The notes below the pieces were generated by a model. The model was not told where the DNA came from. It did not search any database and was given only the letters and a program-made list of their open reading frames with translations. Shown piece after piece: positions 7,798 to 43,085 of a DNA stretch of 64,000 bases; positions within the stretch are counted from its first letter, which is position 1; every line of letters begins with the position of its first letter. The translations under genes were made by a program, and so were the position numbers. This DNA is from Rhynchopus sp. YZ270_cl-10 (taxonomy: Eukaryota): assembly GCA_964035575.1 (NCBI GenBank), contig OZ037838.1:620001-684000 (forward strand), in the 5' to 3' direction.

Positions 7798-8937
7798 TCA
7801 CTCACTGTTGTGTGGGTACAAATGTTGTGTCACAATGACGCCATCCGGTTGCATAACCACAACAACGCGCGAACACGGCGATATCGCAAAGGATTTATTA
7901 TAGGTTTGCGGTATCACACGCACACAGGACATGGTTGCCACATCATACTGGTGCAGGAAGAAAGTGTAATCGTAACACCCACCGTCAGAATCTTCACTGC
8001 CTTCATCTCTAGATTCCGCAACCTCTACCCTGACCACAAGGTACTTCCCACACGGGGTGAACTGCATGCACTCGACACGCCCATCCCCATCCACAGCAAC
8101 ACTGCGAAGAGCCACGCCATCCCGATCATAGAGCTGTACGTTGTTTCCCTTCTCCACAGCAAAGACAGAGGCAGACCGTGAGAGCGCCACTGCACGCCAC
8201 GCGTCCGTCGGCACACATCCCACAGCTTCACCTGTGTTCACATCCCACAGACGTATGTTGCCCTCCATGTCTGATTTAGTGATCACCCACCCACCACAGT
8301 CCGACACTGCCATTCCCCAACACCTTTCGTGCGAGAGAGAGCGGAGCAACGTCAGGTCTTCGTCATACACAGAGACGCCGTCTTTTCCCTTCGAGACAAC
8401 AACACCGCCACACGCGAACACTGACTTCGAGAGGCCGTCGACTTTGCGGAGCACCTCCCCACCCGGAAGCGCAACCTCGAGAAGGTAATCCCCACACGCC
8501 AGGTAGCAGCGTGTCTTGCACTGCGAGATCGCAGGCCGACCGTGCACATCACTGTCCACTTCAAACGAGAAGACAGTATCGAAGGTTTCTGTGTCGAAGC
8601 CGCCAACATATCCACTTCCGTGCGGACTATAGACGCAGAGTGTTCCACAACGCGACAGCGACAGGGTTCCCACATGAGTTGCAGTGTACTCAGCAGGACA
8701 CTTGATGTCGGCCAAGCGAGGGCGGGCAAGCACAACCTGCACCCCTGCACAAAACGCAGTGTCCTGCAGACGGCACGTCCCCTCCAGCACCTGCGTGCCG
8801 ATGCGCATCTCGACAGACGCAGGCGAGACAGCAAGCGCCGTGCACGCAACCTCCTTTGCCGCTGCAACGTTCGCCTCGCACGGCACCTCCACTGTCGCAG
8901 TCACGCCTGACTCTTCCAGCACAAAGGTCACATCCAT
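7798..8937 (-). CDS. U1: UBL + 7-blade WD40-like propeller (379 aa)
   Basis: Intact ORF from MDVTFVLEESG to LYPHNSE, with WD-like LWDVNTG/LYD/QYD strands. Confidence 0.9.
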   Translation of the reverse strand: MDVTFVLEESGVTATVEVPCEANVAAAKEVACTALAVSPASVEMRIGTQVLEGTCRLQDTAFCAGVQVVLARPRLADIKCPAEYTATHVGTLSLSRCGTLCVYSPHGSGYVGGFDTETFDTVFSFEVDSDVHGRPAISQCKTRCYLACGDYLLEVALPGGEVLRKVDGLSKSVFACGGVVVSKGKDGVSVYDEDLTLLRSLSHERCWGMAVSDCGGWVITKSDMEGNIRLWDVNTGEAVGCVPTDAWRAVALSRSASVFAVEKGNNVQLYDRDGVALRSVAVDGDGRVECMQFTPCGKYLVVRVEVAESRDEGSEDSDGGCYDYTFFLHQYDVATMSCVRVIPQTYNKSFAISPCSRVVVVMQPDGVIVTQHLYPHNSE

Positions 8938-9039
8938 TGTTTTGTCTTCTTCTTGTTGTCCCTCTGTGAGGAGATGAGGTGTGGGTTGTGTGTGGGTCTG
9001 TGGTGGTTCTCGTTGTGAGAGGTGATGAATGGAAAATGA

Positions 9040-9241
9040 TACTCAGCATCGCGATCTGTCACCCACACGAGAGCACCGCATGGGCAGCGTGTGAGGTGGG
9101 CGACCTGTGGCAGGCAAACAAGAGAAAAGCAACAGGGCTGAAAGGGGAGTTTCTTGGGGGTGTTTTGAGGGTCTTGGGCTGTTTTGCTGGTACCCTGGGG
9201 TATATTGATCACCACCCTCCCTCCCCTCCCTTGGTCACACA
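9040..9241 (-). promoter_or_regulatory. Conserved inter-unit spacer block with polypyrimidine tract and CAG acceptor (representative copy)
   Basis: Minus strand reads gcttttctcttgtttgcctgccacag|gtcgccc, with the AG ending at 9105. Close variants recur near 7.7, 12.7, 18.4, 22.0, 24.8, 26.2, 30.8 and 40.5 kb. Confidence 0.5.
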
Positions 9242-10387
9242 TCACTCACTGTTGTGTGGGTACAAATGTTGTGTCACAATGCCGCCAGCTGGTTGCACCA
9301 TAACAACGCGCGAACACGGCGATATCACAAATGACAAAATATAGGTTTGCGGTATCACACGCACACAGGACATGGTTGCCACATCATACTGGTGCAGGAA
9401 GAAATTGGAATCGTAATAGTCAGAATCTTCACTGCCTTCATCTCTAGAATCCGCAACCTCTACCGCCACCACAAGGTACTTCCCACACGGGGTGAACTGC
9501 ATGCACTCGTTGCCCCAACCCCAATCCACAGCAACACTGCGAAGAGCCACGCCATCCCGATCATAGAGCTGTACGTTGTTTCCCATCTCCACAGCAAAGA
9601 CAGAGGCAGACCGTGAAAGCGCGACAGTACGGCTGGATACAGGCACACATGCCACAGCTTCACCTGTGTTCACATCCCACAGACGTATGTTGCCCTCCAT
9701 TTCGGATCTGGTGATCACCCACCCACCACAGTCCGACATTGCCAAGTTCCCACACCACTCGTCGCACCCCTTGTGTGAGAGAGTGCGGAGCAACGTCAGG
9801 TCTTCGTCATACACAGAGACGCCGTCTTTTCCCTTCGAGACAACAACACCACCACACGCGAACACTGACTTCGAGATGATGTGGACTTTGCGGAGCACCT
9901 CCCCACCCGGAAGTGCAACCTCGAGAAGGTGATCCCCACACGCCAAGTAGCAGCGTGCCTTGCACTGCGAGATGGCAGGCCGACCGTACACATCATTGTC
10001 CACCTCAAACGAGAAGACAGTATCGAAGGTTTCTGTGTCGAAGCCGCCAACATATCCACTTCCGTGCGGACTATTTCTAAGATGGACACAGAGTGTTCCA
10101 CAACGAGACAGCGACAAGTCTTTTGCATTCTCACCATACACAGCAGGACACTTGATGTCGGCAAAGCGGCGGGCGAGCACAACCTGCACCCCTGCACCAA
10201 ACGCAGTGTCCTGCAGACGGCACGTCCCCTCCAGCACCTGCGTGCCGATGCGCATCTCGACAGACGCAGGCGAGACAGCAAGCGCCGTGCACGCAACCTC
10301 CTTTGCCGCTGCAACGTCCGCCTCGCACGGCACCTCCACTGTCGCAGTCACGCCTGACTCTTCCAGCACAAAGGTCACATCCATCAT
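9242..10387 (-). CDS. U2: UBL + beta-propeller (381 aa)
   Basis: Intact paralogous ORF. Confidence 0.9.
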   Translation of the reverse strand: MMDVTFVLEESGVTATVEVPCEADVAAAKEVACTALAVSPASVEMRIGTQVLEGTCRLQDTAFGAGVQVVLARRFADIKCPAVYGENAKDLSLSRCGTLCVHLRNSPHGSGYVGGFDTETFDTVFSFEVDNDVYGRPAISQCKARCYLACGDHLLEVALPGGEVLRKVHIISKSVFACGGVVVSKGKDGVSVYDEDLTLLRTLSHKGCDEWCGNLAMSDCGGWVITRSEMEGNIRLWDVNTGEAVACVPVSSRTVALSRSASVFAVEMGNNVQLYDRDGVALRSVAVDWGWGNECMQFTPCGKYLVVAVEVADSRDEGSEDSDYYDSNFFLHQYDVATMSCVRVIPQTYILSFVISPCSRVVMVQPAGGIVTQHLYPHNSE

Positions 10388-11438: not shown

Positions 11439-12557
11439 TCACTTGTTGTGGGGGTACAGATGTCTCGTCACAATGTTGGTGCTGCCGGACAACGAAAACA
11501 TGACCACACTCGAACACGGGGATATCGCAAATGACGCACTGTTGACGCCCTGGATCACAAGTACACAGGCCATCGTCGCCACATCATACTGGTGCAGCTT
11601 TAGATTGCCAGCATCCTCATCGTCGTAACGTTCATCTTCCGCAACTCCCACGCCCACCACAAGGTACTTCCCACATGGGGTGAACTGCATGCACTCGACA
11701 CACCCACCCGCATCAACACTGCGAAGAGCCGCACCACTCCAATCAAAGAGCTGCATGTTGCCACGTCCCTCCACAGCAAAGACAGAGGCAGACCGTGAAA
11801 GCGCCACGAGACACCACCCCTCAACAGTCACACATGCCACAGCTTCACCTGTGTTCGCATCCCACAGACGTGTGTTGTTCTCACTGTAGGAGGAGGTGAT
11901 CACCCACCCACCACAGTCCGACACTGCCGCATACAGGCACCCTTCATGCGAGAGAGAGCGGAGCAACGTCAGGTCTTCGTCATACACAGAGAGGCCGTCG
12001 TTGCCTTGGGAGACAACAACACTACCACACGCGAACACTGCGTGCGAGGTGATTTCGACTTTGCGGAGCACCTCCCCACCCGGAAGCGCAACCTCGAGAA
12101 GGTGATCCGCACACGCCAGGTAGCAGCGTGTCTTGCACTGCGAGATGGCAGGCGGACAGTACTCACAACGGCCAATTGTAAATTCGAAGGCAGTTTCGAA
12201 GTTTTCTGTGTCGAAGCCGCCAACATGCCCACTCTTGTTACTATACACGCAGAGTGTTCCACAACGCGATAGCATCAACGACATCGCGCTCACCTCTGAC
12301 CTGTGTTCAGCAGGACACTTGACGTCGGCCAAGCGAGGACAGGCAAGCACAACCTGCACCCCTGCATCAAACGCAGTGTCCTGCAGACGGCACGTCCCCT
12401 CCAGCACCTGCGTGCCGATGCGCATCTCGACAGACGCAGGCGAGACAGCAAGCGCCGTGCACGCAACCTCCTTTGCCGCTGCAACCTTCGCCTCGCACGG
12501 CACCTCCACTGTCGCAGTCACGCCTGACTCTTCCAGCACAAAGGTCACATCCATCAT
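11439..12557 (-). CDS. U3: UBL + beta-propeller (372 aa, ends YPHNK)
   Basis: Intact paralogous ORF; start placed at the conserved MMDVTF. Confidence 0.9.
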   Translation of the reverse strand: MMDVTFVLEESGVTATVEVPCEAKVAAAKEVACTALAVSPASVEMRIGTQVLEGTCRLQDTAFDAGVQVVLACPRLADVKCPAEHRSEVSAMSLMLSRCGTLCVYSNKSGHVGGFDTENFETAFEFTIGRCEYCPPAISQCKTRCYLACADHLLEVALPGGEVLRKVEITSHAVFACGSVVVSQGNDGLSVYDEDLTLLRSLSHEGCLYAAVSDCGGWVITSSYSENNTRLWDANTGEAVACVTVEGWCLVALSRSASVFAVEGRGNMQLFDWSGAALRSVDAGGCVECMQFTPCGKYLVVGVGVAEDERYDDEDAGNLKLHQYDVATMACVLVIQGVNSASFAISPCSSVVMFSLSGSTNIVTRHLYPHNK

Positions 12558-12882: not shown

Positions 12883-13971
12883 TCACTCACTGTTGTGTGG
12901 GTACAGATGTCTTGTCACAATGACGCCATCTGATTCCATAACCACAAGAATACGTGAACACGGCGATATCACAAATGACGTAGCATAGGCTTGCGGGACC
13001 ACACGCACACAGGACATGGTTGCCACATCATACTGGTGCAGCGCCTGTGGATTCCTTACCACAAGGTACTTCCCACACGGGGTGAACTGCATGCCCCAGA
13101 CATCTCCACGTATATCAACACTGCGAAGAGCCGCACCACTCCAGTCATAGAGCTGAACGGTGCTCTCCTCCCCCACAGCAAAGACAGAGGCAGACCGTGA
13201 AAGCGCCACTCTACACCGCCACCACTCCGCAGGCACACATACCACAACTTCACCTGTGTTCACATCCGACAGACGAACGTTCTTCTCCCTGCTGGAGGAG
13301 GTGATCACCCACCCACCACAGTCAGACACTGCCACCTCCCTGCACCTTTCGTGCGAGAGAGAGCGGAGCAACGTCAGGTCTTCGTCATACACAGAGACGC
13401 CGTCTTCACCTTCGGAGACAACAACACTGCCACACGCAAACACTTTGAACGAGCTGCCTTCAGTTTCGACTTTGCGGACCACCTCCCCACCAGGAAGCGC
13501 AACCTCGGCAAGGTAACCCAAACACGGCAGGTAGCAGCGTGTCTTGCACTGAGAGATGGCAGGCGGACCGACCACTTCCGTGTCCGCTTCAAACGAGAAG
13601 ACAGTGTTGAAGGTTTCTGTGTCGAAGCCAACAACATTCTTCTCATGAATATAGACGCAGAGTGTTCCACAACGCGACAGCGACATCGCTGCGTGCCCCG
13701 ATGACCTCTCGAAATTGTACTCAGCAGGACACTTGATGTCGGCCAAGCGAGGGCGGGCAAGCACAACCTGCACCCCTGCACCAAACGCAGTGTCCTGCAG
13801 ACGGCACGTCCCCTCCAACACCTGCGTGCCGATGCGCATCTCGACAGACGCAGGCGACACAGCAAGCGCCGTGCACGCAACCTCCTTTGCCGCTGCAACG
13901 TCCGCCTCGCACGGCACCTCCACTGTCGCAGTCACGCCTGACTCTTCCAGCACAAAGGTCACATCCATCAT
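12883..13971 (-). CDS. U4: UBL + beta-propeller (362 aa)
   Basis: Intact paralogous ORF; start at MMDVTF. Confidence 0.9.
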   Translation of the reverse strand: MMDVTFVLEESGVTATVEVPCEADVAAAKEVACTALAVSPASVEMRIGTQVLEGTCRLQDTAFGAGVQVVLARPRLADIKCPAEYNFERSSGHAAMSLSRCGTLCVYIHEKNVVGFDTETFNTVFSFEADTEVVGPPAISQCKTRCYLPCLGYLAEVALPGGEVVRKVETEGSSFKVFACGSVVVSEGEDGVSVYDEDLTLLRSLSHERCREVAVSDCGGWVITSSSREKNVRLSDVNTGEVVVCVPAEWWRCRVALSRSASVFAVGEESTVQLYDWSGAALRSVDIRGDVWGMQFTPCGKYLVVRNPQALHQYDVATMSCVRVVPQAYATSFVISPCSRILVVMESDGVIVTRHLYPHNSE

Positions 13972-14441: not shown

Positions 14442-15569
14442 TCACTCACTGTTGTGTGGGTACAGATGCCTTGTCACAATGACGCGATCTGATTGCATAG
14501 TAACAACAACACGTGAACACGGCGATATCGCAAAGGACCCACCTGATCGGTGCGGTATCACATGCACACAGGACATGGTCGCCACATCATACTGGTGCAG
14601 GTGTGTATCTTCGTCATCGCCACATTCTACATCAAAGCTCCTCACCACAAGGTACTTCCCACACGGGGTGAACTGCATACACTCGACTTTCCCACCCACA
14701 TCAACACTGCGAAGAGCCGCACCACTCCAATCATAGAGCTGCACGGTGTTTTGCTCCCCCACAGCAAAGACAGAGGCAGACCGTGAAAGCGCCACGTACC
14801 GCCACCCATCCGCAGGCACACATGCCACAACTTCACCTGTGTTCACATCCCACAGGCATATGTTCTTCTCCTTCCTGGAGGAGGTGATCACCCACCCACC
14901 ACAGTCCGACATTGCCATGTCATGACACCATTTGTGCGAGAGAGAGCGGAGCAACGTCAGGTCTTCGTCATACACAGAGACGACGTTGTGTCCCTGCGAG
15001 ACAACAACACCGCCACACGCGAACACTGACGACGAGTTGCCGTCAACTTTGCGGACCACCTCCCCACCCGGAAGCGCAACCTTGAGAAGGCCTTCCTTCT
15101 TGCACGGCAGGTAGCAGCGTGTCTTGCACTGCGAGATGGCAGGTGGACCGAGCTCATCAGTGTGCACTTTGAACGAGAAGGCAGTGTCGAAGGTTTCTGT
15201 GTCGAAGCCACCAACGTGCCCAGTACATTCGCCCATCAATACGCAGACCTCGGGACTGTAGACGCAGAGCGTTCCACAACGCGACAGCGACAAGTAGTCT
15301 GCTTGCTGCCGCCAACTGTACTCAGCAGGACACTTGATGTCAGCAAAGCGGCGGGCAAGCACAACCTGCACCCCTGCACCAAACGCAGTGTCCTGCAGAC
15401 GGCACGTCCCCTCCAGCACCTGCGTGCCGATGCGCATCTCGACAGACGCAGGCGAGACAGCAAGCGCCGTGCACGCAACCTCCTTTGCCGCTGCAACGTT
15501 CGACTCGCACAGCACCTCCACTGTCGCAGTCACGCCTGACTCTTCCAGCACAAAGGTCACATCCATCAT
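14442..15569 (-). CDS. U5: UBL + beta-propeller (375 aa)
   Basis: Intact paralogous ORF; start at MMDVTF. Confidence 0.9.
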   Translation of the reverse strand: MMDVTFVLEESGVTATVEVLCESNVAAAKEVACTALAVSPASVEMRIGTQVLEGTCRLQDTAFGAGVQVVLARRFADIKCPAEYSWRQQADYLSLSRCGTLCVYSPEVCVLMGECTGHVGGFDTETFDTAFSFKVHTDELGPPAISQCKTRCYLPCKKEGLLKVALPGGEVVRKVDGNSSSVFACGGVVVSQGHNVVSVYDEDLTLLRSLSHKWCHDMAMSDCGGWVITSSRKEKNICLWDVNTGEVVACVPADGWRYVALSRSASVFAVGEQNTVQLYDWSGAALRSVDVGGKVECMQFTPCGKYLVVRSFDVECGDDEDTHLHQYDVATMSCVHVIPHRSGGSFAISPCSRVVVTMQSDRVIVTRHLYPHNSE

Positions 15570-17159: not shown

Positions 17160-18230
17160 TCACTCACTGTTGTGTGGGTACAGATGCTTTGTCACAATGA
17201 CGCCATCTGATTGCATAACCACAACAACACGTGAACACGGCGATATCACAAAGGACGTATCTGAGTCATGCGTCATCACATGCACACGGGACATGGTCGC
17301 CACATCATACTGGTGCAGAACGTGTGCAGTCTTTACCACAAGGTACTTCCCACACGGGGTGAACTTCATGCCCCAGATATTCCCACGTATAGCAACACTG
17401 CGAAGAGCCGCACCACTCCAGTCAAAGAGCTGAACGGCGCTTTCCCCCCCCACAGCAAAGACAGAGGCAGACCGTGAAAGCGCCACTGGACACCAGAACC
17501 CCGCAGGCACACATGCCACAGCTTCATCTGTGTTCACATCCCACAGACGCATGTTCTTCTCCTTGTTGGAGGAGGTGATCACCCACCCACCACAGTCCGA
17601 CACTGCCATTCCCCAACACCTTTCGTGTGAGAGAGAGCGGAGCAACATCAGGTCTTCGTCATACACAGAGACGCCGTCTTTGCCCTTCGAGACAACAACA
17701 CTACCACACGCGAACACTGACTTCGAGATGCCGTCAACTTTGCGGACCACCTCCCCACCCGGAAGCGCAACCTCGAGAAGGTGGTCCTGACACGCCAGGT
17801 AGCAGCGTGTCTTGCACTGCGAGACGGCAGGCCAACCGTACACTTCCGTGTCCACTTCAAACGAGAAGACAGTGTTGAAGGTGTCTGTGTCGAAGCCGCC
17901 AACATATCCACTTCCGTGCGGACTATAGACGCAGAGCGTTCCACAAGGCGACAGTGACAAGTGTCCCACATTTGTTGCAGTGTACTCAGCAGGACACTTG
18001 ATGTCGGCAAAGCGGCGGGCAAGCACAACCTGCACCCCTGCATCAAACGCAGTGTCCTGCAGACGGCACGTCCCCTCCAGCACCTGCGTGCCGATGCGCA
18101 TCTCGACAGACGCAGGCGAGACAGCAAGCGCCGTGCACGCAACCTCCTTTGCCGCTGCAACCTTCGCCTCGCACGGCACCTCCACTGTCGCAGTCACGCC
18201 TGACTCTTCCAGCACAAAGGTCACATCCAT
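17160..18230 (-). CDS. U6: UBL + beta-propeller (356 aa)
   Basis: Intact paralogous ORF; start at MDVTF. Confidence 0.9.
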   Translation of the reverse strand: MDVTFVLEESGVTATVEVPCEAKVAAAKEVACTALAVSPASVEMRIGTQVLEGTCRLQDTAFDAGVQVVLARRFADIKCPAEYTATNVGHLSLSPCGTLCVYSPHGSGYVGGFDTDTFNTVFSFEVDTEVYGWPAVSQCKTRCYLACQDHLLEVALPGGEVVRKVDGISKSVFACGSVVVSKGKDGVSVYDEDLMLLRSLSHERCWGMAVSDCGGWVITSSNKEKNMRLWDVNTDEAVACVPAGFWCPVALSRSASVFAVGGESAVQLFDWSGAALRSVAIRGNIWGMKFTPCGKYLVVKTAHVLHQYDVATMSRVHVMTHDSDTSFVISPCSRVVVVMQSDGVIVTKHLYPHNSE

Positions 18231-18570: not shown

Positions 18571-19647
18571 TCACTCACTGTTGTGTGGGTACAGATGCTT
18601 TGTCACAATGACGCCATCTGGTTGCATAACCACAACAAGACGTGAACACGGCGATATCACAAATGACGTATCTGAGTTATGCGGTATCACATGCACACGG
18701 GACGTGGTCGCCACATCATACTGGTTCAGAACGTGTGCAGTCTTTACCACAAGGTACTTCCCACACGGGGTGAACTGCATGCCCAAGACATCTCCACGTA
18801 TATCAACACTGCGAAGAGCCGCACCACTCCAATCAAAGAGCTGCACGGTGTTGTTCCCCGCCTCAGTAAACACAGAAGCAGACCGTGAAAGCGCCACGAG
18901 ACACCACCTATCCGCAGGCACACATGCCACAGCTTCACCTGTGTTCACATCCCACAGACGTGTGTTCTTCTCCTTGTTGGAGGAGGTGATCACCCACCCA
19001 CCACAGTCCGACACTGCCACACTCCTGCACCTTTCGTGAGAGAGAGAGCGGAGCAACGTCAGGTCTTCGTCGTACACAGAGACGCCGACTGTGCCCTTCG
19101 AGACAACAACACTGCCACACGCGAACACTTTGAACGAGCTGCCTTCAGTATCGACTTTGCGGACCACCTCCCCACCCGGAAGCGCAACTTCGAGAAGTCC
19201 GTGTTCCCAACATGGCAGGTAGCAGCGTGTCTTGCACTGCGAGATGGCAGGCGGACCGTACACTTCCGTGACCACTTCGAATGAGAAGACAGTGTCGAAG
19301 GTTTCTGTGTCGAAGCCAACAACATTCTTATGATGAACATAGACGCAGAGCGTTCCACAACGCGACAGCGACAAGTTTTCCACATCTATTGCAGTGTACT
19401 CAGCAGGACACTTGATGTCAGCAAAGCGAGGACAGGCAAGCACAACCTGCACTCCTGAATCAAACGCAGTGTCCTGCAGACGGCACGTCCCCTCCAGCAC
19501 CTGCGTGCCGATGCGCATCTCGACAGATGCAGGCGAGACAGCAAGCGCCGTGCACGCAACCTCCTTTGCCGCTGCAACCTTCGCCTCGCACGGCACCTCC
19601 ACTGTCGCAGTCACGCCTGACTCTTCCAGCACAAAGGTCACATCCAT
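18571..19647 (-). CDS. U7: UBL + beta-propeller (358 aa)
   Basis: Intact paralogous ORF; start at MDVTF. Confidence 0.9.
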   Translation of the reverse strand: MDVTFVLEESGVTATVEVPCEAKVAAAKEVACTALAVSPASVEMRIGTQVLEGTCRLQDTAFDSGVQVVLACPRFADIKCPAEYTAIDVENLSLSRCGTLCVYVHHKNVVGFDTETFDTVFSFEVVTEVYGPPAISQCKTRCYLPCWEHGLLEVALPGGEVVRKVDTEGSSFKVFACGSVVVSKGTVGVSVYDEDLTLLRSLSHERCRSVAVSDCGGWVITSSNKEKNTRLWDVNTGEAVACVPADRWCLVALSRSASVFTEAGNNTVQLFDWSGAALRSVDIRGDVLGMQFTPCGKYLVVKTAHVLNQYDVATTSRVHVIPHNSDTSFVISPCSRLVVVMQPDGVIVTKHLYPHNSE

Positions 19648-20743: not shown

Positions 20744-21811
20744 TCACTCACTGTTGTGGGGGTACAGATGCATTGTCGCAATGACGCCATCTGGTTGCAT
20801 AACCACAACAACACGTGAACACGGCGATATCGCAAAGAACGTATCTGAGTTATGTGGCATCACATGCACACGGGACATGGTTGCCACATCAAACTGGTAC
20901 AGCAGGTGTGTATTCCTTACCACAAGGTACTTCCCACACGGGGTGAACTGCATGCCCAAGACATCTCCACGTATATCAACACTGCGAAGAGCCGCACCAC
21001 TCCAATCAAAGAGCTGCACGGTATTTTGCTCCCCCACAGCAAAGACAGAAGCAGACCGTGAGAGCGCCACGAGACACCACCCCTCCGCAGGCACACATGC
21101 CACAGCTTCACCTGTGTTCACATCCCACAGACGTGCGTTCTTCTCACGGTAGGAGGAGGTGATCACCCACCCACCACAGTCCGACACTGCTACGTCCCTG
21201 CACCGCTGAGGCGAGAGAGAGCGGAGCAACATCAGGTCTTCGTCATACACAGAGACGCCGTCTCTGCCCTCAGAGACAACAACACCGCCACACGCGAACA
21301 CTGAGTACGAGTTGCCGTCGACTTTGCGGAGCACCTCCCCACCCGGAAGCGCAACTTCACGAAGGTGGTCATGACACGGCAGGTAGCAGCGTGTCTTGCA
21401 CTCCGAGATGGCAGGCGGACCGACCACTTTAGTGTCCACTTCGAACGAGAAGACAGTGTTGAAGGTTTCTGTGTCGAAGCAGCCAACATGTCCATCCCTG
21501 TTACAATAGACGCAGAGCGTTCCACAAGGAGACAGTGACAAGCGTCCCCTATGGGTTGCAGTGTACTCAGCAGGACACTTGATGTCGGCAAAGCGGCGGG
21601 CAAGCACAACCTGCACCCTTGCATCAAACGCAGTGTCCTGCAGACGGCACGTCCCCTCCAGCACCTGCGTGCCGATGCGCATCTCGACAGACGCAGGCGA
21701 GACAGCAAGCGCCGTGCACGCAACCTCCTTTGCCGCTGCAACGTCCGCCTCGCACGGCACCTCCACTGTCGCAGTCACGCCTGACTCTTCCAGCACAAAG
21801 GTCACATCCAT
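20744..21811 (-). CDS. U8: UBL + beta-propeller (355 aa)
   Basis: Intact paralogous ORF; start at MDVTF. Confidence 0.9.
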   Translation of the reverse strand: MDVTFVLEESGVTATVEVPCEADVAAAKEVACTALAVSPASVEMRIGTQVLEGTCRLQDTAFDARVQVVLARRFADIKCPAEYTATHRGRLSLSPCGTLCVYCNRDGHVGCFDTETFNTVFSFEVDTKVVGPPAISECKTRCYLPCHDHLREVALPGGEVLRKVDGNSYSVFACGGVVVSEGRDGVSVYDEDLMLLRSLSPQRCRDVAVSDCGGWVITSSYREKNARLWDVNTGEAVACVPAEGWCLVALSRSASVFAVGEQNTVQLFDWSGAALRSVDIRGDVLGMQFTPCGKYLVVRNTHLLYQFDVATMSRVHVMPHNSDTFFAISPCSRVVVVMQPDGVIATMHLYPHNSE

Positions 21812-27326: not shown

Positions 27327-27334
27327 GTCACACA

Positions 27335-28836: not shown

Positions 28837-30531
28837 TCAGGGCACCCCCTTGGCATCACGTCCAATGCGCAGCACGTCAAGAATAGCAGTGGCATTCGCC
28901 TTCTTGGGCAACCGTTTTGCAACCTCTAGGGGTGTGCGCCCTGCGTGGTTCACTGCATCGACAGAGGCACCGTGCTTGACGAGCATGTGCACCACGTCAC
29001 CCTGCGGGTCATTATTTTTGCTTACAGCATGGTGCAGTGCAGTGTTGCCATTCTTGGCCACAGTGGACAGCGACGCACCCGCTTCAAGAAGAGCAACAAC
29101 AGCATCCTTGTTGCCACACTCGGATGCCCTGTGCAAGGGTGTGCGTCCGAGGCTGTCGACTGCATCGACACAGGCACCGTGCTTGAGAATCATGCGCACA
29201 AAGTCAGCTTGGGGGTCGTTCATTTTGATGGCAGCATGGTGCAGTGCAGTGTTGCCTTTCTTGTCTGCTCCTGCAACCGACGCACCCGCTTCAACAAGAG
29301 CAACAACAGCAACCTTGTTGCCACCATGGGATGCCTTGTGGAGGGGTGTGTTACCAGATTTGTTGGCCGTGTGGACAGAGGCACCGTGCTTGACAAGGAT
29401 GTGCACGAGGTCAGCTTGGGGGTCGTTCTCAGAGCTGGCAGCATGGTGCAGTGCAGTGTTGCCAATCGCGTCCACAGTGGACAGCGACGCACCCGCATCA
29501 ACAAGAGCTACAACAGCAGCCTTGTTGCCACAATATGATGCCCTGTGCAGGGGTGTGCGCCCTGACTTTTCGCCTGCATCGACAGAGGCACCGTGCTTGA
29601 GAAGCATGTGCACGAGGTCAGCTTGGGGGTCGTTCTCAGAGCTGGCAGCATGGTGCAGTGCAGTGTTGCCATTCGTGTCCACAGTGGAAAGTGACGCACC
29701 GGCTTCAAAAAGAGCAACAACAGCAGCCTTGTTGCCACAATATGATGCCTTGTGGAGGGGTGTGCGCCCTGAGTTGTCGACTGCATCGACAGAGGCACCG
29801 TGCTTGAGAAGCATGTGCACGAGGTCAGCTTGGGGGTCGTTCTCAACGCTTGCAGCATAGTGCAGTGCAGTGTTGCGAACTCTGTCTGTTGTGGCCACCG
29901 ACGCACCGGCTTCGACAAGAGCAACAACAGCAACCTTGTTTCCACACCGTAACGCATTGTGGAGGGGTGTTTGCCTTGATTTGTTCTTTACTTCAAGAGA
30001 GGCACCGTGCTTGAGAAGCATGTGCACGAGGTCAGCTTGGAGGTCGTTTTCAGTGCTGGCAGCATGGTGCAGTGCAGTGTTGCCGTCACTGTCCACAGCG
30101 GACAGCGATGCACCCCTTGTGATGAGCTCGTTGAGACAACCAAGGCTCCCCTTTGCAGCATGCAGCAGTGCGGTCATACCGCGAGGTGACACAACGTCCA
30201 GCGCCACACCAGCATCGAGGAGAAGAACTAAACACCCGACATGGCCCCCGCTTGCACAGATCATGAGGGGTGTCGTGCCCGTGTCGTCACACACGTCCAA
30301 CAGCGCAGGCAGCGTGGTGTCTCTTCCCCTCACTGCCGTGTTTGTGTCAGGCGCAAACTGTTCGGAAAGCATCGCCCTGAGGGACTCCTGCTGATCCCCC
30401 CTGCACATAGAGCACACAGCATGGTGTGGGCCTGCTGCACACCTTGCCGCCACAACCAACACCGCATCAGCACACTTTGTTCGCTTAGGTGGGTTCTCAT
30501 CCGATGCCCTGTCTGCGTGTCGCTTCGACAT
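28837..30531 (-). CDS. Ankyrin-repeat protein (~14 repeats, mostly alternating 36+33 aa units) embedded in the array
   Basis: GNTALHHAA...LLKHGASV and GRTPLH.AS.CGN..AVVAL.EAGAS repeats with a 207-nt DNA period. ATG at 30531 (MSKRHADRASDENPPKRTK, NLS-like). Confidence 0.92.
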   Translation of the reverse strand: MSKRHADRASDENPPKRTKCADAVLVVAARCAAGPHHAVCSMCRGDQQESLRAMLSEQFAPDTNTAVRGRDTTLPALLDVCDDTGTTPLMICASGGHVGCLVLLLDAGVALDVVSPRGMTALLHAAKGSLGCLNELITRGASLSAVDSDGNTALHHAASTENDLQADLVHMLLKHGASLEVKNKSRQTPLHNALRCGNKVAVVALVEAGASVATTDRVRNTALHYAASVENDPQADLVHMLLKHGASVDAVDNSGRTPLHKASYCGNKAAVVALFEAGASLSTVDTNGNTALHHAASSENDPQADLVHMLLKHGASVDAGEKSGRTPLHRASYCGNKAAVVALVDAGASLSTVDAIGNTALHHAASSENDPQADLVHILVKHGASVHTANKSGNTPLHKASHGGNKVAVVALVEAGASVAGADKKGNTALHHAAIKMNDPQADFVRMILKHGACVDAVDSLGRTPLHRASECGNKDAVVALLEAGASLSTVAKNGNTALHHAVSKNNDPQGDVVHMLVKHGASVDAVNHAGRTPLEVAKRLPKKANATAILDVLRIGRDAKGVP

Positions 30532-31301: not shown

Positions 31302-31320
31302 CTCCCCTCCCCTGGTCACA

Positions 31321-32415
31321 TCACTCACTGTTGTGTGGGTACATATGTCTTGTAACAATGTGGAGATTTGATTGCATAATCACAACAATACGTGAACATG
31401 GCGATATCGCAAATGACTCACCATAGACTTCCGGTATCACATGCACACAGGACATGGTTGCCACATCATACTGGCTCAGTTGTGCATTGTAATCACCATC
31501 ATCATCATCCCCGACTTCCTTGACCACAAGGTACTTCCCACATGGGGTGAACTGCATACCCCTTCCATCCCCATCCACATCAACACTGCGAAGAGCCGCA
31601 CCACTCCAATCAAAGAGGTGCACGGTGTGTTCCTCCCCCACAGCAAAGACAGAGGCAGACCGTGAAAGCGCCAATCTCTTCCAGGAAAAAACAGGCACAC
31701 ATGCCACTTCTTCACCTGTGTTCACATCCCACAGACGTGCGTTCTTCTCCTTGTCGGAAGAGCTGATCACCCACCCACCACAGTCCGACACCGCTACATC
31801 ATTACACCTTTTGTGTGATAGAGAGCGGAGCAACGTCAGGTCTTCGTCATACACAGAGACGCCGCGTGTGCCTCGTGAGACAACAACACTGCCACACGCG
31901 AACACTGCGTGTGAGGTGCCATAGACTTTGCGGACCACCTCCCCACCCGGAAGCGCAACCTCGCGTAAGTCCTCCCGACACGTCAGGTAGCAGCGTGTCA
32001 TGCACTGCGAGATGGCAGGCCGACGGACCACTTCAGTGCCCACATAAAACGAGAAGACAGTGTTGAAGGTTTCTGTGTCGAAGCCGCCAACATGCCCATC
32101 CCTGCTACAATAGACGCAGAGCGTTCCACAACGCGACAGCGACAAGTGTCCCCTTTGTGCAGTGTACTCAGCAGGACACTTGATGTCGGCAAAGCGGCGG
32201 GCAAGCACGATCTGCACCCCTGCATCAAACGCAGTGTCCTGCAGACGGCACGTCCCCTCCAGCACCTGCGTGCCGATGCGCATCTCGACAGACGCAGGCG
32301 AGACAGCAAGCGCCGTGCACGCAACCTCCTTTGCCGCTGCAACGTCCGCCTCGCACGGCACCTCCACTGTCGCAGTCACGCCTGACTCTTCCAGCACAAA
32401 GGTCACATCCATCAT
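31321..32415 (-). CDS. U13: UBL + beta-propeller (364 aa)
   Basis: Intact paralogous ORF. Confidence 0.9.
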   Translation of the reverse strand: MMDVTFVLEESGVTATVEVPCEADVAAAKEVACTALAVSPASVEMRIGTQVLEGTCRLQDTAFDAGVQIVLARRFADIKCPAEYTAQRGHLSLSRCGTLCVYCSRDGHVGGFDTETFNTVFSFYVGTEVVRRPAISQCMTRCYLTCREDLREVALPGGEVVRKVYGTSHAVFACGSVVVSRGTRGVSVYDEDLTLLRSLSHKRCNDVAVSDCGGWVISSSDKEKNARLWDVNTGEEVACVPVFSWKRLALSRSASVFAVGEEHTVHLFDWSGAALRSVDVDGDGRGMQFTPCGKYLVVKEVGDDDDGDYNAQLSQYDVATMSCVHVIPEVYGESFAISPCSRIVVIMQSNLHIVTRHMYPHNSE

Positions 32416-32605: not shown

Positions 32606-33700
32606 TCACTCACTGTTGTGTGGATACAGATGTCTTGTTACAATGTGAGTACCTTCTTCCAATACCACAACAACACGTGAACACGGCGATATCACAAATG
32701 CACCTGAGCATTGCGGTATCACACGCACACGGGACATGGTCGCCACATCATACTGGTGCAGAGGTGCATCTTCGTCATCATCAGATTCCGGACCCTGTAC
32801 CCTGACCACAAGGTACTTCCCACACGGGGTGAACTGCATGTCCGTGACAAACCCACCCACATCAACACTGCGAAGAGCCGCACCACTCCAATCAAAGAGG
32901 TGCACGTTATTTAAACCCCCCACCACAGCAAAGACAGAGGCAGACCGTGAAAGCGCGACAACGTGGCTTGATACAGGCACACATGCCACAGCTGCACCTG
33001 TGTTCACATCCCACAAGCGCACGTTGTTCTCCTCCCAGGAGGAGGTGATCGCCCACGCACCACAGTCCGATACTGCCACGTCCCAGCACCGTTCGCGAGA
33101 GAGAGAGCGGAGCAACGTCAGGTCTTCGTCATACACAGAGACGCCGTCTCCGCCCTTCGAGACAACAACACCGCCACACGCGAACACTGACCCCGAGTAG
33201 CCGTCGACTTTGCGGAGCACCTCCCCACCCGGAAGCGCAACCTCGAGAAGGCCTTCCTTGTTGCACGGCAGGTAGCAGCGTGTCTTGCACTGCGAGATGG
33301 CAGGCCGACCGAATACATTGTCCACTTCAAACGAGAAGACAGTGTCGAAGGTTTCTGTGTCCAAGCCAACAACATTCCGATAGTCAAGATAGACGCAGAG
33401 CGTTCCACAACGCGACAGCGACAAGGTTCCCCTGTGCGTTGCAGTGTACTCAGCAGGACACTTGATGTCGGCCAAGCGAGGACAGGCAAGCACAACCTGC
33501 ACCCCTGCACCAAACGCAGTGTCCTGCAGACGGCACGTCCCCTCCAGCACCTGCGTGCCGATGCGCATCTCGACAGACGCAGGCGAGACAGCAAGCGCCG
33601 TGCACGCAACCTCCTTTGCCGCTGCAACGTCCGCCTCGCACGGCACCTCCACTGTCGCAGTCACGCCTGACTCTTCCAGCACAAAGGTCACATCCATCAT
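32606..33700 (-). CDS. U14: UBL + beta-propeller (364 aa)
   Basis: Intact paralogous ORF; start at MMDVTF. Confidence 0.9.
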   Translation of the reverse strand: MMDVTFVLEESGVTATVEVPCEADVAAAKEVACTALAVSPASVEMRIGTQVLEGTCRLQDTAFGAGVQVVLACPRLADIKCPAEYTATHRGTLSLSRCGTLCVYLDYRNVVGLDTETFDTVFSFEVDNVFGRPAISQCKTRCYLPCNKEGLLEVALPGGEVLRKVDGYSGSVFACGGVVVSKGGDGVSVYDEDLTLLRSLSRERCWDVAVSDCGAWAITSSWEENNVRLWDVNTGAAVACVPVSSHVVALSRSASVFAVVGGLNNVHLFDWSGAALRSVDVGGFVTDMQFTPCGKYLVVRVQGPESDDDEDAPLHQYDVATMSRVRVIPQCSGAFVISPCSRVVVVLEEGTHIVTRHLYPHNSE

Positions 33701-34165: not shown

Positions 34166-35332
34166 TCACTCACTGTTGTGTGGGTACAGATGTCTTGTCA
34201 CAATGACGTCATCTGATTGTATCACCATAACAACACGTGAACACGGTGATATCGCAATGGAAGGAATGTAGTAGGAGGCTGAGCTTTGCGGCATCACACG
34301 CACACAGGACATGGTCGCCACATCATACTGGTGCAGAGTGTACTCTTTACAAAATGATGATGCTGCACCCCTCTCAAACCCAACAACGACGTACTTCCCA
34401 CATGGAGTGAACTGCACGGCACAGACACTACAATCCTCCTCTTCAAAGCTTCCAAGACTGCGAAGAGCCGCACCACTCCGCTTGTAGAGCTGCACGGTGT
34501 CATAGTACTCTACAGCTAAGACAGAGGCGGACCGTGAAAGCGCCGTGTTCCTCCGCGCCACGTGCTGCTCATCTGGAGGCGTACATGCCACAGCTTCACC
34601 TGTGTTCACATCCCACAGACGCACCGTCTTCTCACTGTAGGAGGAGGTGATCACCCACCCACCACAGTGCGACACCCCCATGGTGAAACAATTTTCGTGC
34701 GAGATAGAGCGGAGCAACGTCAGGTCTTCGTCATACACAGAGACGACGTTGTGGCCCCTCGAGACAACAACACCGCCACACGCGATCACTTGGCGCGAGG
34801 GGTCGACTTTGCGGAGCACCTCCCCACCCGGAAGCGCAACCTCGCGCAGACCGTCCATGCACGCCAGGTAGCAGCGTGTCTTGCACTCCGAGATGGCAGG
34901 CGCACCGCACACCTCAATGTCTACTTTGAAGTTGAAGGCACGGCTGAAGGTTTCTGTATCGAGGCCGGCGACATAAGTGACAGTGCTTGCCTCCTGTGCA
35001 CAGAGGCAGAGTGCTCCACAAGGAGACAGCGATAAATGACTCACATGCATCCCTTGCCCTGCAGTTGTTGGCACCTCTGCAGTGTACTCAGCAGGACACT
35101 TGATGTCGGCAAAGCGGCAGGCAAGCACAACCTGCACCCCTGCATCAAACGCAGTGTCCTGCAGACGGCACGTCCCCTCCAGCACCTGCGTGCCGATGCG
35201 CATCTCGACAGACGCAGGCGAGACAGCAAGCGCCGTGCACGCAACCTCCTTTGCTGCTGCAACGTCCGCCTCGCACGGCACCTCCACTGTCGCAGTCACG
35301 CCTGACTCTTCCAGCACAAAGGTCACATCCAT
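34166..35332 (-). CDS. U15: UBL + beta-propeller (388 aa, visibly the most divergent copy)
   Basis: Intact paralogous ORF with several longer loops. Confidence 0.9.
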   Translation of the reverse strand: MDVTFVLEESGVTATVEVPCEADVAAAKEVACTALAVSPASVEMRIGTQVLEGTCRLQDTAFDAGVQVVLACRFADIKCPAEYTAEVPTTAGQGMHVSHLSLSPCGALCLCAQEASTVTYVAGLDTETFSRAFNFKVDIEVCGAPAISECKTRCYLACMDGLREVALPGGEVLRKVDPSRQVIACGGVVVSRGHNVVSVYDEDLTLLRSISHENCFTMGVSHCGGWVITSSYSEKTVRLWDVNTGEAVACTPPDEQHVARRNTALSRSASVLAVEYYDTVQLYKRSGAALRSLGSFEEEDCSVCAVQFTPCGKYVVVGFERGAASSFCKEYTLHQYDVATMSCVRVMPQSSASYYIPSIAISPCSRVVMVIQSDDVIVTRHLYPHNSE

Positions 35333-37866: not shown

Positions 37867-39000
37867 TCACTCACTGTTGTGTGGGTACAGATGCCTTGTT
37901 ACAATGCCGCCATCTGATTGCAGAGACACAAGAACACGTGAACACGGCGATATCGCAAACCATGAACTGTCGCACAGCACCACACGTACACAGGACATGG
38001 TCTCCACATCATACTGGTGCAGGGGTACTTCGTAATCATCTGAATTGCCATCATTTGTGTCCGTATCATCATCAGCCGAAACAGATATACTGGCCACAAG
38101 GTATTTCCCACATGGGGTGAACTGTATGCCGTCGACACTCCCTCCCACATCAACACTGCGAAGAGCCGCACCACTCCAATCAAAGAGCTGCACGGTGTTT
38201 TGCTCCCCCACAGCAAAGACAGAGGCAGACCGTGAAAGCGCCACTCTACACTGCCACCCCTCCGCAGGCACACATGCCACAGCTTCACCTGTGTTCACAT
38301 CCCACAGACGTACGTTGTCCTCCTTCCTGGAGGAGGTGATCACCCACCCACCACAGGGCGACACTGCCATGTCCCAGCACATTCCATGCGAGAGAGAGCG
38401 GAGCAACGTCAGGTCTTCGTCATACACAGAGACGCCGGCATTTCCCTTCGAGACAACAACCCTGTCACACGCGAACACTGCGTCCGGGGTGCCGTCGACT
38501 TTGCGGAGCACCTCCCCACCCGGAAGCGCAACCTTGCGTAATTCTTCCTCACACGCCAGGTAGCAGTGTGTCTTGCACCGTGAGATGGCAGGCGGACCGC
38601 GAATACGACAGTCACCTCCCACACTAAAAGCAAAGGCAGTATTGAAGGTTTCTGTGTCGAGGCCACCAACATGCGTACCATGACGATAGAGACAGAGCGT
38701 GCCACAAGGAGACAACGACAACTGTTGAAGGCCCTCCTGCACACTGTACTGAGCAGGACACTTGATGTCGGCAAAGCGAGGGCGGGCAAGCACAACCTGC
38801 ACCCCTGCCTCAAAAGCAGTGTCCTGCAGACGGCACGTCCCCTCCAGCACCTGCGTGCCGATGCGCATCTCGACAGACGCAGGCGAGACAGCAAGCGCCG
38901 TGCACGCAACCTCCTTTGCCGCTGCAACCTTCGCCTCGCACGGCACCTCCACTGTCGCAGTCACGCCTGACTCTTCCAGCACAAAGGTCACATCCATCAT
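37867..39000 (-). CDS. U16: UBL + beta-propeller (377 aa)
   Basis: Intact paralogous ORF; start at MMDVTF. Confidence 0.9.
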   Translation of the reverse strand: MMDVTFVLEESGVTATVEVPCEAKVAAAKEVACTALAVSPASVEMRIGTQVLEGTCRLQDTAFEAGVQVVLARPRFADIKCPAQYSVQEGLQQLSLSPCGTLCLYRHGTHVGGLDTETFNTAFAFSVGGDCRIRGPPAISRCKTHCYLACEEELRKVALPGGEVLRKVDGTPDAVFACDRVVVSKGNAGVSVYDEDLTLLRSLSHGMCWDMAVSPCGGWVITSSRKEDNVRLWDVNTGEAVACVPAEGWQCRVALSRSASVFAVGEQNTVQLFDWSGAALRSVDVGGSVDGIQFTPCGKYLVASISVSADDDTDTNDGNSDDYEVPLHQYDVETMSCVRVVLCDSSWFAISPCSRVLVSLQSDGGIVTRHLYPHNSE

Positions 39001-39171
39001 ATTGTTAAGGGGTCTGTTGTGTTTGATGTGATGGTTGGTGGTGTCAATTCGCAACGACAAATAAGAAGGATGAGTGCGTGTTCTTGCAATAGGGCTAAAA
39101 GGTTTTTTTGGGGGCGTTGGGTAGAGTCTTGGGTTGTTTTGCTTGTACCCTGGCCCTCCCCTGGTCACACA

Positions 39172-40327
39172 TCACTCACTGTTGTGTGGGTACAGATGTC
39201 TTGTCGCAATGTAGGAATCTTGTTGCAGAACCACAACCACACGTGAACACGGCGATATCGCAAATGCATCTGAGCTGTCCTGTATCACATCCACACGGGA
39301 CATGGTCGCCACATCATACTGGTGCAGGGGTGTAGTGTAAGTCAAAACATCTTCGTAATCATCATCTCCTGATCCGTAAACACGTATCCCCACCACTCGG
39401 TATTTCCCACACGGGGTGAACTGCATGCTCCCAACTTCCCCAGCCGCATGAACACTGCCAAGAGCCGCACCACTCCAATCATAGAGCTGCACGGTGTAGT
39501 TCTCCGCCTCAGCAAAGACCACAGCAAAGACAGAGGCAGACCGTGAAAGCGCCACTCTATACCACCACCCCTCCGCAGGCACACATGCCACAGCTTCACC
39601 TGTGTTCACATCCCACAGACGTACGTTCTTCTCCTTGTTGGAGGAGGTGATCACCCACCCACCACAGTCTGATACTGCCACACGCCCGCACTCTTCGTGC
39701 GAGAGAGAGCGGAGCAACGTCAGGTCTTCGTCATACACAGAGACGCCGTCTCTGACCCTGGAGACAACAACACTGCCACACGCAAACACTGACCCCGAGG
39801 GGCCGTCGACTTTGCGGACCACCTCTCCACCCGGAAGCGCAACCTTGAGAAGGCCTTCCTCCCAACACGCCAGGTAGCAGCGTGTCTTGCACTGCGAGAT
39901 GGCAGGCGAAGCCGTGTTCCCGACCGTACACTTTAGTGTCCGCTTCAAACGAGAAGACAGTGTTGAAGGTTTCTGTGTCGAAGCCAACAATATTTCCACC
40001 ATCACCAATAAGGCAGAGCGTTCCACAACGCGACAGCGAGATCGTTACGTCCATAGATGAACACTTGAAATTGTACTGAGCAGGACACTTGATGTCAGCA
40101 AAGCGAGGGCGGGCAAGCACAACCTGCACCCCTGCATCAAACGCAGTGTCCTGCAGACGGCACGTCCCCTCCAGCACCTGCGTGCCGATGCGCATCTCGA
40201 CAGACGCAGGCGAGACAGTAAGCGCCGTGCACGCAACCTCCTTTGCCGCTGCAACGTCCGCCTCGCACGGCACCTCCACTGTCGCAGTCACACCTGACTC
40301 TTCCAGCACAAAGGTCACATCCATCAT
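39172..40327 (-). pseudogene. U17: UBL + beta-propeller frameshifted by a 13-nt insertion
   Basis: gaagccgtgttcc at 39908-39920 interrupts the usual ggcaggc|cgaccgtac. Removing it restores a 1143-nt ORF. Confidence 0.85.
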
Positions 40328-40679: not shown

Positions 40680-41765
40680 TCACTCACTGTTGTGTGGGAA
40701 TAGATGTCTCGTCACAACGGCGCCATCTGATTGAAAAGACACAACAACGCGTGAACACGGCGATATCGCAAATGACACAACAAACCTTTGTGTCGTCATG
40801 ATTTCCACATCATGCGACATGGTTGCCACATCATACTGGTACAGAACGTGTCGAGTCTTTACCACAAGGTACTTCCCACACGGGGTGAACTGCATGCCCA
40901 AGACATCTCCACGTATATCAACACTGCGAAGAGCCGCACCACTCCAATCATAGAGCTGCACAGTGCTCTCCTCCCCCACAGCAAAGACAGAGGCAGACCG
41001 TGAGAGCGCCACGAGACACCACCCCTCCTCAGGCACACATGCCACAGCTTCACCTGTGTTCACATCCCACAGACGTGCCTTCTTCTCCTTGTAGGAGGAT
41101 GTTATCACCCACCCACCACAGTCCGACACTGCCATGTCCACGCATGCCTTTTGCGAGAGAGAGCGGAGCAACGTCAGGTCTTCGTCATACACAGAGACGC
41201 AGTGTGTGCAGCCAGAGACAACAACACTGCCACACGCGAACACTAACCCCGAGTTGCCGTCAACTTTGCGGAGCACCTCCCCACCCGGAAGCGCAACCTC
41301 GAGAAGGTGATCCCCACACGGCAGGTAGCATCGTGTCTTGCACTGCGAGATGGCAGGCCGACCGACCACTTCCGTGTCCACTTCAAATGAGAAGACAGTG
41401 TCGAAGGTTTCTGTGTCGAAGCCAACAACATTCCTATCATAAACATAGATACAGAGCGTTCCACAAAGCGACAGCGACATCGCTGCGTGCCTCGATGACC
41501 TCTCGAAACTGTACTCAGCGGGACACTTGATATCGGCAAAGCGAGGACACGCAAGCACAACCTGCACCCCTGCACAAAACGCAGTATCCTGCAGACGGCA
41601 CGTCCCCTCCAGCACCTGCGTGCCGATGCGCATCTCGACAGACGCAGGCGAGACAGCAAGCGCCGTGCACGCAACCTCCTTTGCCGCTGCAACGTCCGCC
41701 TCGCACGGCACCTCCACTGTCGCAGTCACGCCTGACTCTTCCAGCACAAAGGTCACATCCATCAT
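40680..41765 (-). CDS. U18: UBL + beta-propeller (361 aa)
   Basis: Intact paralogous ORF. Confidence 0.9.
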   Translation of the reverse strand: MMDVTFVLEESGVTATVEVPCEADVAAAKEVACTALAVSPASVEMRIGTQVLEGTCRLQDTAFCAGVQVVLACPRFADIKCPAEYSFERSSRHAAMSLSLCGTLCIYVYDRNVVGFDTETFDTVFSFEVDTEVVGRPAISQCKTRCYLPCGDHLLEVALPGGEVLRKVDGNSGLVFACGSVVVSGCTHCVSVYDEDLTLLRSLSQKACVDMAVSDCGGWVITSSYKEKKARLWDVNTGEAVACVPEEGWCLVALSRSASVFAVGEESTVQLYDWSGAALRSVDIRGDVLGMQFTPCGKYLVVKTRHVLYQYDVATMSHDVEIMTTQRFVVSFAISPCSRVVVSFQSDGAVVTRHLFPHNSE

Positions 41766-41951
41766 ATTGTTAAGGGGTCTGTTGTGTTTGATGTGATGGT
41801 TTGTGGTGTCACTTCACAACGACAAAGAAGAAGAGAGAGTACGTGTTTCTAACAGGGCTAAAAGGGGGTGTTTTGAGGGTCTTGGGTTTTTTTTTTGTCG
41901 TACCCTGGGTTATATTGATCACCACCCTCCCTCCCCTCCCCTGGTCACACG

Positions 41952-43085
41952 TCACTCACTGTTGTGTGGGTACAGATGTCTCGTCACAATGACGGTACCT
42001 TCTTCCAATAGCACAACACCACGTGAACACGGCGATATCGCAAATGCACCTGAACATTGCGGTATCACACGCACACAGGACATGGTCGCCACATCATACT
42101 GGTGCAGTGATGTATTGTAATCGTCATCTGTGTCATCATCAGAATCCGTACCTTCTACCCTGACCACAAGGTACTTCCCACACGGGGTGAACTGCATGCC
42201 CTCGACTTCCCCATCCATACCAACACTGCGAAGAGCAGCACCACTCCAATCAAAGAGCTGCACGGTGTGTTCCTCCCCCACAGCAAAGACAGAGGCAGAC
42301 CGTGAAAGCGCCACTACTGCGCACCACCCATCCGCAGGCACACATGCCACAACTTCACCTGTGTTCACATCCCACAGACGTGCGTTCTTCGCCCTCGTGG
42401 AGGAGGTGATCACGCACCCACCACAGTCAGACACTGCCACGTCCCAGCACATTCCATGCGAGAGAGAGCGGAGCAACGTCAGGTCTTCGTCATACACAGA
42501 GACGCCGTCATTGCCTTTTGAGACAACAACACTGCCACACGCGACCACTGACTTTGAGATGCTGTCGACTTTGCGGACCACCTCCCCACCCGGAAGCGCA
42601 ACCTCGAGAAGGCAATCGTCACACGCCAGGTAGCAGCGTGTCTTGCACCGTGAGATGGCAGGCGCATCCCACACCTCACTGTCTACTTTGAACTTGAAGG
42701 CAGGGCTGAAGGTGTCTGTATCGAGGCCGGTGACATATCCTTCCTCCTGTGCAAAGAGGCAGAGTGCTCCACAAGGAGACAGCGATAAACCCTCTATACT
42801 CATGTCCTGCCCGCCAGGTGGCGCCTCTGCAGTGTACTGAGCAGGACACTTGATGTCGGCCAAGCGAGGACAGGCAAGCACAACCTGCACCCCTGCATCA
42901 AACGCAGTGTCCTGCAGACGGCACGTCCCCTCCAGCACCTGCGTGCCGATGCGCATCTCGACAGACGCAGGCGAGACAGCAAGCGCCGTGCACGCAACCT
43001 CCTTTGCCGCTGCAACGTCCGCCTCGCACGGCACCTCCACTGTCGCAGTCACGCCTGACTCTTCCAGCACAAAGGTCACATCCAT
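41952..43085 (-). CDS. U19: UBL + beta-propeller (377 aa), first unit in transcription order
   Basis: Intact paralogous ORF; start at MDVTF. Confidence 0.9.
   Translation of the reverse strand: MDVTFVLEESGVTATVEVPCEADVAAAKEVACTALAVSPASVEMRIGTQVLEGTCRLQDTAFDAGVQVVLACPRLADIKCPAQYTAEAPPGGQDMSIEGLSLSPCGALCLFAQEEGYVTGLDTDTFSPAFKFKVDSEVWDAPAISRCKTRCYLACDDCLLEVALPGGEVVRKVDSISKSVVACGSVVVSKGNDGVSVYDEDLTLLRSLSHGMCWDVAVSDCGGCVITSSTRAKNARLWDVNTGEVVACVPADGWCAVVALSRSASVFAVGEEHTVQLFDWSGAALRSVGMDGEVEGMQFTPCGKYLVVRVEGTDSDDDTDDDYNTSLHQYDVATMSCVRVIPQCSGAFAISPCSRGVVLLEEGTVIVTRHLYPHNSE

Follow-up and report, generated by a model that had tools for sequence, protein, structure and literature searches.

What function is served by a gene array that joins one nearly invariant N-terminal domain, over and over, to a repeat domain of extreme variability? 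This question is raised by a 64,000-nucleotide stretch of the genome of Rhynchopus sp. YZ270_cl-10 (GenBank assembly GCA_964035575.1, contig OZ037838.1, positions 620,001 to 684,000 of the forward strand), which is termed the window and to which all coordinates refer. [quoted passage not shown] The analysis summarized here finds a recombining family of more than one hundred copies, whose members are predicted to adopt these two folds, vary almost exclusively on one face of the propeller, show contrasting ratios of nonsynonymous to synonymous substitution (dN/dS) on the two propeller faces and exchange segments as mosaics. The favoured explanation, to which about an even chance is assigned, is that the diversifying top face of the predicted propeller binds probably foreign proteins, while the UBL domain docks on a host machine common to all paralogs.

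Predicted folds and the location of variation

The fold of the repeat domain was modelled with AlphaFold for unit 4, an intact gene of 361 amino acids (aa) at 12883-13968 that served as the reference unit. Residues 84-354 (12907-13719) form seven four-stranded blades, with a predicted local distance difference test score (pLDDT) of about 90 over residues 90-350, and Foldseek returned at least 500 propeller matches for the unit model, while Pfam WD40 scores stayed below the curated cut-off. According to the model, the propeller is thus a divergent WD40-like member, in agreement with the seven four-strand repeats of the initial annotation. The blades are dissimilar within a unit, as each unit gives one diagonal match and none off the diagonal at an E-value of 0.01. 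The model ends a few residues past blade 7, with no C-terminal helix and no room for a UBA domain, and Pfam scans of five units detected neither a UBA nor another ubiquitin-binding domain. Likewise, NACHT and HET domains were absent from these scans and from the unit 4 model, and F-box and BTB domains had no Pfam match in units or N-domains. The N-terminus is formed by the UBL domain itself and the highest 19-residue hydropathy is 1.3-1.8, so that the absence of an obvious transmembrane segment or signal peptide, noted earlier, holds by hydropathy, with no dedicated predictor used.

The N-terminal domain (residues 1-71 of unit 4, 13756-13968) required an alignment with distant relatives, since its pLDDT was below 50 when the whole unit was folded with 96 close paralogs. 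With a 13-row alignment of this kind, AlphaFold yielded a beta-grasp at a pLDDT of 88, for which a structure search gave template modelling scores of 0.78-0.87 to ubiquitin and UBL domains; comparison with ubiquitin itself gave a Z score of 12.6 and a root-mean-square deviation of 1.4 A over 74 residues. Moreover, the profile of the N-domain aligns to ubiquitin without gaps, and the Pfam ubiquitin family was matched by 4 of the 13 aligned N-domains (best E-value 2.9e-6). Hence, the domain is predicted to have the ubiquitin fold, and the beta-grasp postulated beforehand is supported.

Variation was mapped on 126 proteins, namely 18 window units and 108 database matches, from which 12 entries identical to window units had been dropped. 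The N-domain proved as constant as had been claimed: in 125 of the 126 proteins, mean identity to the commonest variant is 98.3%, and the mean entropy of the UBL domain is 0.10 bits. Only residues 23 (Asp/Lys/Asn) and 63 (Asp/Gly/Cys/Glu) are clearly polymorphic among the window units, with almost no silent change at these sites. In the repeat domain, the alternation of constant and variable blocks that had been read from the sequence corresponds to its geometry, the variable blocks being the d-a and b-c loops, seven of each kind, that make up the top face. This face of WD40 propellers is a standard interaction platform. It holds 66 of the 67 sites with an entropy of at least 2 bits, of which none lies in the UBL domain; mean entropy amounts to 2.47 bits in top loops against 0.29 bits in bottom loops, and 109 of 132 indel runs fall in loops or strand halves of the top side. 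Each loop occurs in 71-124 variants, and all 126 loop combinations are distinct, which follows partly by construction as the database entries represent 90% clusters. In blade 6, the b-c loop is between 6 and 33 residues long and in many cases strongly acidic (for example within 7798-8937). Each unit also contains 16-22 cysteines, many of them on the bottom face, at its constant a-b turns (for example in 12883-13968).

Selection, exchange and extent of the family

The statistics on selection and exchange refer to the 18 unbroken window units. Pairwise dN/dS is 1.51 in d-a loops (bootstrap confidence interval 1.08-2.15) and 1.70 in b-c loops (1.08-2.65), compared with 0.26-0.63 on the bottom face. 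A codon model gave a consistent picture, with a ratio (omega) of 3.55 for the 29 gap-free top-loop codons (twice the log-likelihood difference to omega = 1, 2dlnL, 38.4) and of 0.55 for 129 bottom codons (2dlnL 16.8). In addition, incompatibility between sites increases with their distance, from 0.29 at up to 30 nucleotides (nt) to about 0.42 at more than 60 nt (119 informative sites, permutation p 2e-4), and individual mosaics are evident: in unit 4, the start of the propeller agrees to 98% with unit 10 and the end to 99% with unit 9. Taken together, the dN/dS contrast, the map of variation and recombination uphold the proposed combination of a constant module with a diversified binding face, and constitute strong evidence, at the level of sequence, for diversifying recognition. 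As a source of the variation, a diversity-generating retroelement or a deaminase-type mutator found no support, because minor alleles per site number 1.8-2.1 for all four bases and base-specific bias is absent.

The same data bear on the possibility that one UBL-WD40 gene was amplified in a largely neutral manner, with relaxed loops and local hypermutation. Silent diversity indeed climbs together with replacement diversity in the loops, dS being 0.42-0.47 in top loops and 0.03-0.16 in other parts, and omega in the constant parts is fairly high at 0.44-0.55, as such a process would entail. On the other hand, bottom loops are exposed as well but constant, top-loop omega exceeds 1 by two methods, 18 of 19 frames have remained open despite frequent loop indels, and a mutation bias towards particular bases is missing, which renders this explanation quite improbable.

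With respect to its extent, one unit used as query returned 419 protein matches, of which the 120 listed are all family members at 58-100% identity, while the further 299 may include unrelated WD40 proteins. There are thus at least 120 distinct close paralogs, 81 apparently on the contig of the window, 31 on another and 8 distributed over five more. When 1.84 billion representatives were searched with a profile, this added relatives at 48-59% identity and six full-length ones at 27-31%. Single-sequence searches with the UBL domain of the window returned nothing useful, Atlas matches all remained under 0.9 and serve as leads only, and a profile built from seven distant members recovered 41 generic WD40 proteins along with three of the rows that it was made from. 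Since no named organism occurs among the family matches seen, the expansion looks lineage-restricted. No description of the family was found in the literature searched, although supplements and subscription papers may hold one; the terms 'WD40' and 'ubiquitin' are absent from the main text of the Diplonema papillatum genome paper, whose supplements were covered in small part.

The best 150 representatives of the profile search also bear on an offensive role, in which the UBL domain would be a delivery header and the propeller would bind proteins of prey or hosts. The precedent is provided by the Crinkler (CR) proteins, an expanded and recombining family whose N-termini are predicted Ubl headers, which lack signal peptides and recombine at the end of the header (PMC5289972), and an identical pattern of selection would be left by an arms race in which prey or hosts are the opponents. 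The C-termini of these proteins, however, are varied enzymatic toxin domains, whereas the window family carries a single type of payload, a propeller varying in its loops and devoid of an enzymatic toxin domain; among the 150 representatives, the near-identical UBL domain is either joined to the propeller or present in short fragments, and never combined with varied payloads. An effector function is therefore regarded as improbable.

The array and its surroundings

A tblastn search with one unit against the window located 19 co-oriented single-exon units on the minus strand between 7798 and 43085, all near-full in length and each with one N-domain match (19/19). As initially described, 16 are intact and stand alone, two form a joined pair and one is frameshifted. 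The 18 unbroken units comprise 355-388 aa from the methionine at the conserved start, as had been stated, without internal stops, and although loop indels are numerous, only one of the 19 units has lost its open frame. Pairwise identities of 66-89% imply that the units are not collapsed duplicates, and closer units are slightly more alike (Spearman -0.23, p 0.004). Contigs of three public sequencing runs extend over both genes and spacers. Parts of the array, unique spacers among them, are matched by such contigs with identities reaching 100%; the contigs may stem from the source sample and hence are not independent.

From the low-coordinate end, the intact units, each recognized by tblastn and as an open reading frame (ORF), are unit 1 (7798-8937, 379 aa), unit 2 (9242-10384, 380 aa), unit 3 (11439-12554, 371 aa), the reference unit 4, unit 5 (14442-15566, 374 aa), unit 6 (17160-18230, 356 aa), unit 7 (18571-19647, 358 aa), unit 8 (20744-21811, 355 aa), unit 11 (24964-26046, 360 aa), unit 12 (27335-28453, 372 aa), unit 13 (31321-32412, 363 aa), unit 14 (32606-33697, 363 aa), unit 15 (34166-35332, 388 aa), unit 16 (37867-38997, 376 aa), unit 18 (40680-41762, 360 aa) and unit 19 (41952-43085, 377 aa), all on the minus strand. 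The read-through pair appears as an 870-aa ORF (22159-24612), in which unit 10 (23497-24612, 372 aa, from the ORF) has lost its stop through a small deletion just before it in the assembly, so that its frame crosses a 267-nt spacer into unit 9 (22159-23229, 356 aa, tblastn and ORF), the downstream partner with a start methionine of its own; a true gene fusion was ruled out in view of this lost stop. In unit 17 (39172-40324, from tblastn), a short insertion near 39907-39922, in the top loop between blades 1 and 2, shifts the frame in the assembly. Upstream in-frame extensions occur in some units only and were dismissed as a conserved leader. A 20th unit, absent from the initial annotation, is represented by a 3' remnant comprising the last blades (5156-5381, minus strand; tblastn match 5157-5312, extending to 5381), which abuts a dispersed repeat at 4986-5155. 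Further copies of this repeat, 98-100% identical, lie at 1408-1577 and 56847-56983, and the copy at 4986-5155 apparently truncates the remnant.

Spacers between units measure 174-2867 nt. Those upstream of units (for example 8938-9140) fall into about five distinct sequence types, several of which contain a pyrimidine tract with AG, a candidate acceptor for trans-splicing, and a G-rich motif is common to the region after most unit stops. Co-oriented gene clusters fit the genome organisation of diplonemids (PMC10161547). One spacer contains a co-oriented ankyrin-repeat gene of 564 aa (28837-30531, minus strand) with 5.7 copies of an internal 207-nt repeat. Beyond the array, a 465-aa ORF (5835-7232, minus strand) gives a weak kinesin-motor match (E-value 0.03-0.08), and a UBL-like stretch suspected in it was not confirmed. 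A Shaker-type potassium channel gene (47453-48637, minus strand) has its best named matches in D. papillatum at 50-52% identity, which together with the co-oriented clusters makes a diplonemid host likely. At 49943-50998, a 7-nt unit is repeated in 151 near-perfect copies, with 10-nt and dispersed repeats on the flanks.

A proposed constant handle and variable head

According to the favoured explanation, each paralog would bind a different, probably foreign, protein via its top face, with endosymbiont effectors, viruses and proteins of mobile elements as candidate targets, and the constant UBL handle would bring the resulting complex to a host machine common to all paralogs, to be neutralised or disposed of. 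As in fungal HNWD genes, the many copies would be the source of mutations and indels in the loops, which exchange among the paralogs would reshuffle blade for blade; selection would retain new top faces and conversion would keep the remainder uniform. Binding, foreign targets, a cytosolic location and a single partner are inferred. Foreign ligands appear most likely because of the arms-race signature; Holosporaceae and Rickettsiaceae are reported to live inside diplonemid cells and to have a large number of secreted effectors (10.1101/719211; PMC8061765), while diplonemid viruses are unverified (PMC8061765).

The partner of the UBL domain most likely belongs to the ubiquitin/AAA+ system and would be reached through a surface other than the one formed by L8, I44 and V70 in ubiquitin; candidate routes are Rpn11 as for midnolin, an AAA+ ATPase as for Ytm1 and Rsa4, or a ligase scaffold. 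Midnolin's UBL domain binds Rpn11 and sets a precedent for ubiquitin-independent delivery (10.1101/2025.02.22.639686). Like the window family, midnolin combines an N-terminal UBL domain with a second domain, which in midnolin captures the substrate; unlike it, midnolin is a single gene with a Catch domain and a C-terminal helix needed for Rpn1. A more far-reaching version, with several hundred cytosolic, antibody-like propellers reshuffled by conversion, whose UBL domain would take captured endosymbiont or viral proteins without a ligase to the proteasome or an AAA+ unfoldase, in the manner of a diversified midnolin, is considered rather doubtful.

Several observations weigh against the favoured reading. 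In the register of the gapless profile alignment, the UBL domain has Glu at L8 and Arg at I44 in 126 of 126 proteins and Ala at V70 in 124 of 126, and it is acidic, with a net charge of -6 to -8. A Gln occupies the position of K48, and in most of the 126 proteins Ala-Asp takes the place of G75-G76, so that the di-glycine of a conjugatable modifier is absent. These features also bear on delivery in the manner of Rad23 and Dsk2, proposed initially, in which the UBL domain would bind Rpn1, Rpn10 or Rpn13 and take targets to the proteasome. A true, N-terminal and non-conjugatable ubiquitin fold would suit such shuttles, as would a constant handle with a variable head in analogy to nematode F-box expansions (PMC8665587). 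Nevertheless, L8/I44/V70 is the patch by which ubiquitin binds Rpn1 (PMC8405992), and since this patch is lacking, and no UBA or similar domain was found in the five units scanned, shuttling of this type is judged highly improbable and the usual proteasome receptors are disfavoured as partners.

The uniformity of the UBL domain does not unequivocally reflect its function either. Uniformity at silent sites matches that of the residues (dS 0.028 compared with 0.42-0.47 in top loops), which suggests gene conversion, rather than protein constraint alone, as the cause; omega is 0.57 pairwise and 0.44 in the codon model (2dlnL 4.0). The uniformity begins sharply at the ATG, as UBL coding DNA is 98-99% identical compared with about 60% in the 60 nt upstream (shuffled 50%), which points to conversion restricted to coding DNA together with purifying selection. 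The latter is also suggested by mid-distance relatives, which retain 63-81% identity in the UBL domain at 48-53% overall, while in the six distant relatives the UBL domain (25-40% identical) has diverged about like the whole protein. The postulated constant effector module therefore stands as far as constancy is concerned, but constancy alone is no proof of a constrained effector surface. Further reservations apply to the selection analysis. Including the top strand halves lowers omega to 1.13, which is not significant, and in recently exchanged tracts 17 replacement and 1 silent single-base changes fall in top loops (p 0.15, not significant). Recombination and clustered mutation are able to inflate omega, and this may have happened here since immediately 5' of variable codons silent diversity is elevated (0.30 vs 0.11). 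Moreover, face classes were set from the model after the per-site table had been seen, and the limits of blades 2 and 7 were drawn manually. Finally, degradation, foreign targets and expression enter the reading by inference.

The initial annotation recognized no described family in this architecture, a statement that has to be corrected, as the combination is known from Ytm1/WDR12 and Rsa4/Notchless, in which an NLE-type UBL domain precedes a seven-bladed WD40 propeller and serves as the handle for an AAA+ ATPase while the propeller is the binder (PMC4737154). In contrast to the hypervariable window family, these are single conserved factors of ribosome assembly; Pfam NLE matched 0 of 13 N-domains at E-values up to 1 and none of the five units scanned. 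The top matches listed in structure and profile searches did not include Ytm1 or Rsa4. With regard to the conserved MIDAS-binding glutamate of the NLE family, the UBL domain has several invariant glutamates. A likeness in the mode of evolution is offered by the HNWD/NWD genes of Podospora anserina (HET-D/HET-E), where the d-a and b-c loops of the top face are under diversifying selection and concerted evolution homogenises the rest (PMC1805685). These proteins, however, possess HET and NACHT domains and near-identical blades, which are shuffled within and between about ten genes, whereas the window family has dissimilar blades, exchange at matching positions among at least 120 paralogs and a UBL N-module. 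As HNWD propellers serve allorecognition, recognition within the species or genome (kin, mating or conflict with selfish elements) must be considered as well, the UBL domain then acting, as in Ytm1/Rsa4, as a handle for signalling or remodelling. The absence of NACHT and death domains, the lack of NLE matches and the presence of hundreds of paralogs instead of a few polymorphic loci speak against it, and it is deemed as improbable as the offensive role. A further comparable case is the F-box expansion of Caenorhabditis, with hundreds of tandem paralogs, a conserved N-terminal handle and a selected C-terminal binding domain for which recognition of foreign proteins has been proposed (PMC8665587); there, the F-box binds Skp1 in the SCF ligase, whereas the UBL handle has no known ligase link.

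In summary, the window family belongs to none of the NLE, HNWD, F-box and Crinkler systems, and the locus may be viewed as a fresh variation on the theme of recognition by a constant handle and a variable head. Recognition of intracellular invaders in free-living protists is a largely open field, and this family bears the evolutionary signature of immune receptors, with one selected face, reshuffling, more than 100 copies, a small single-exon scaffold and a near-invariant handle. One pull-down with the UBL domain might identify the effector pathway, and a few using propellers the targets. In addition, the family would amount to a naturally occurring library of propeller binders, each with 14 loops on an unvarying frame.

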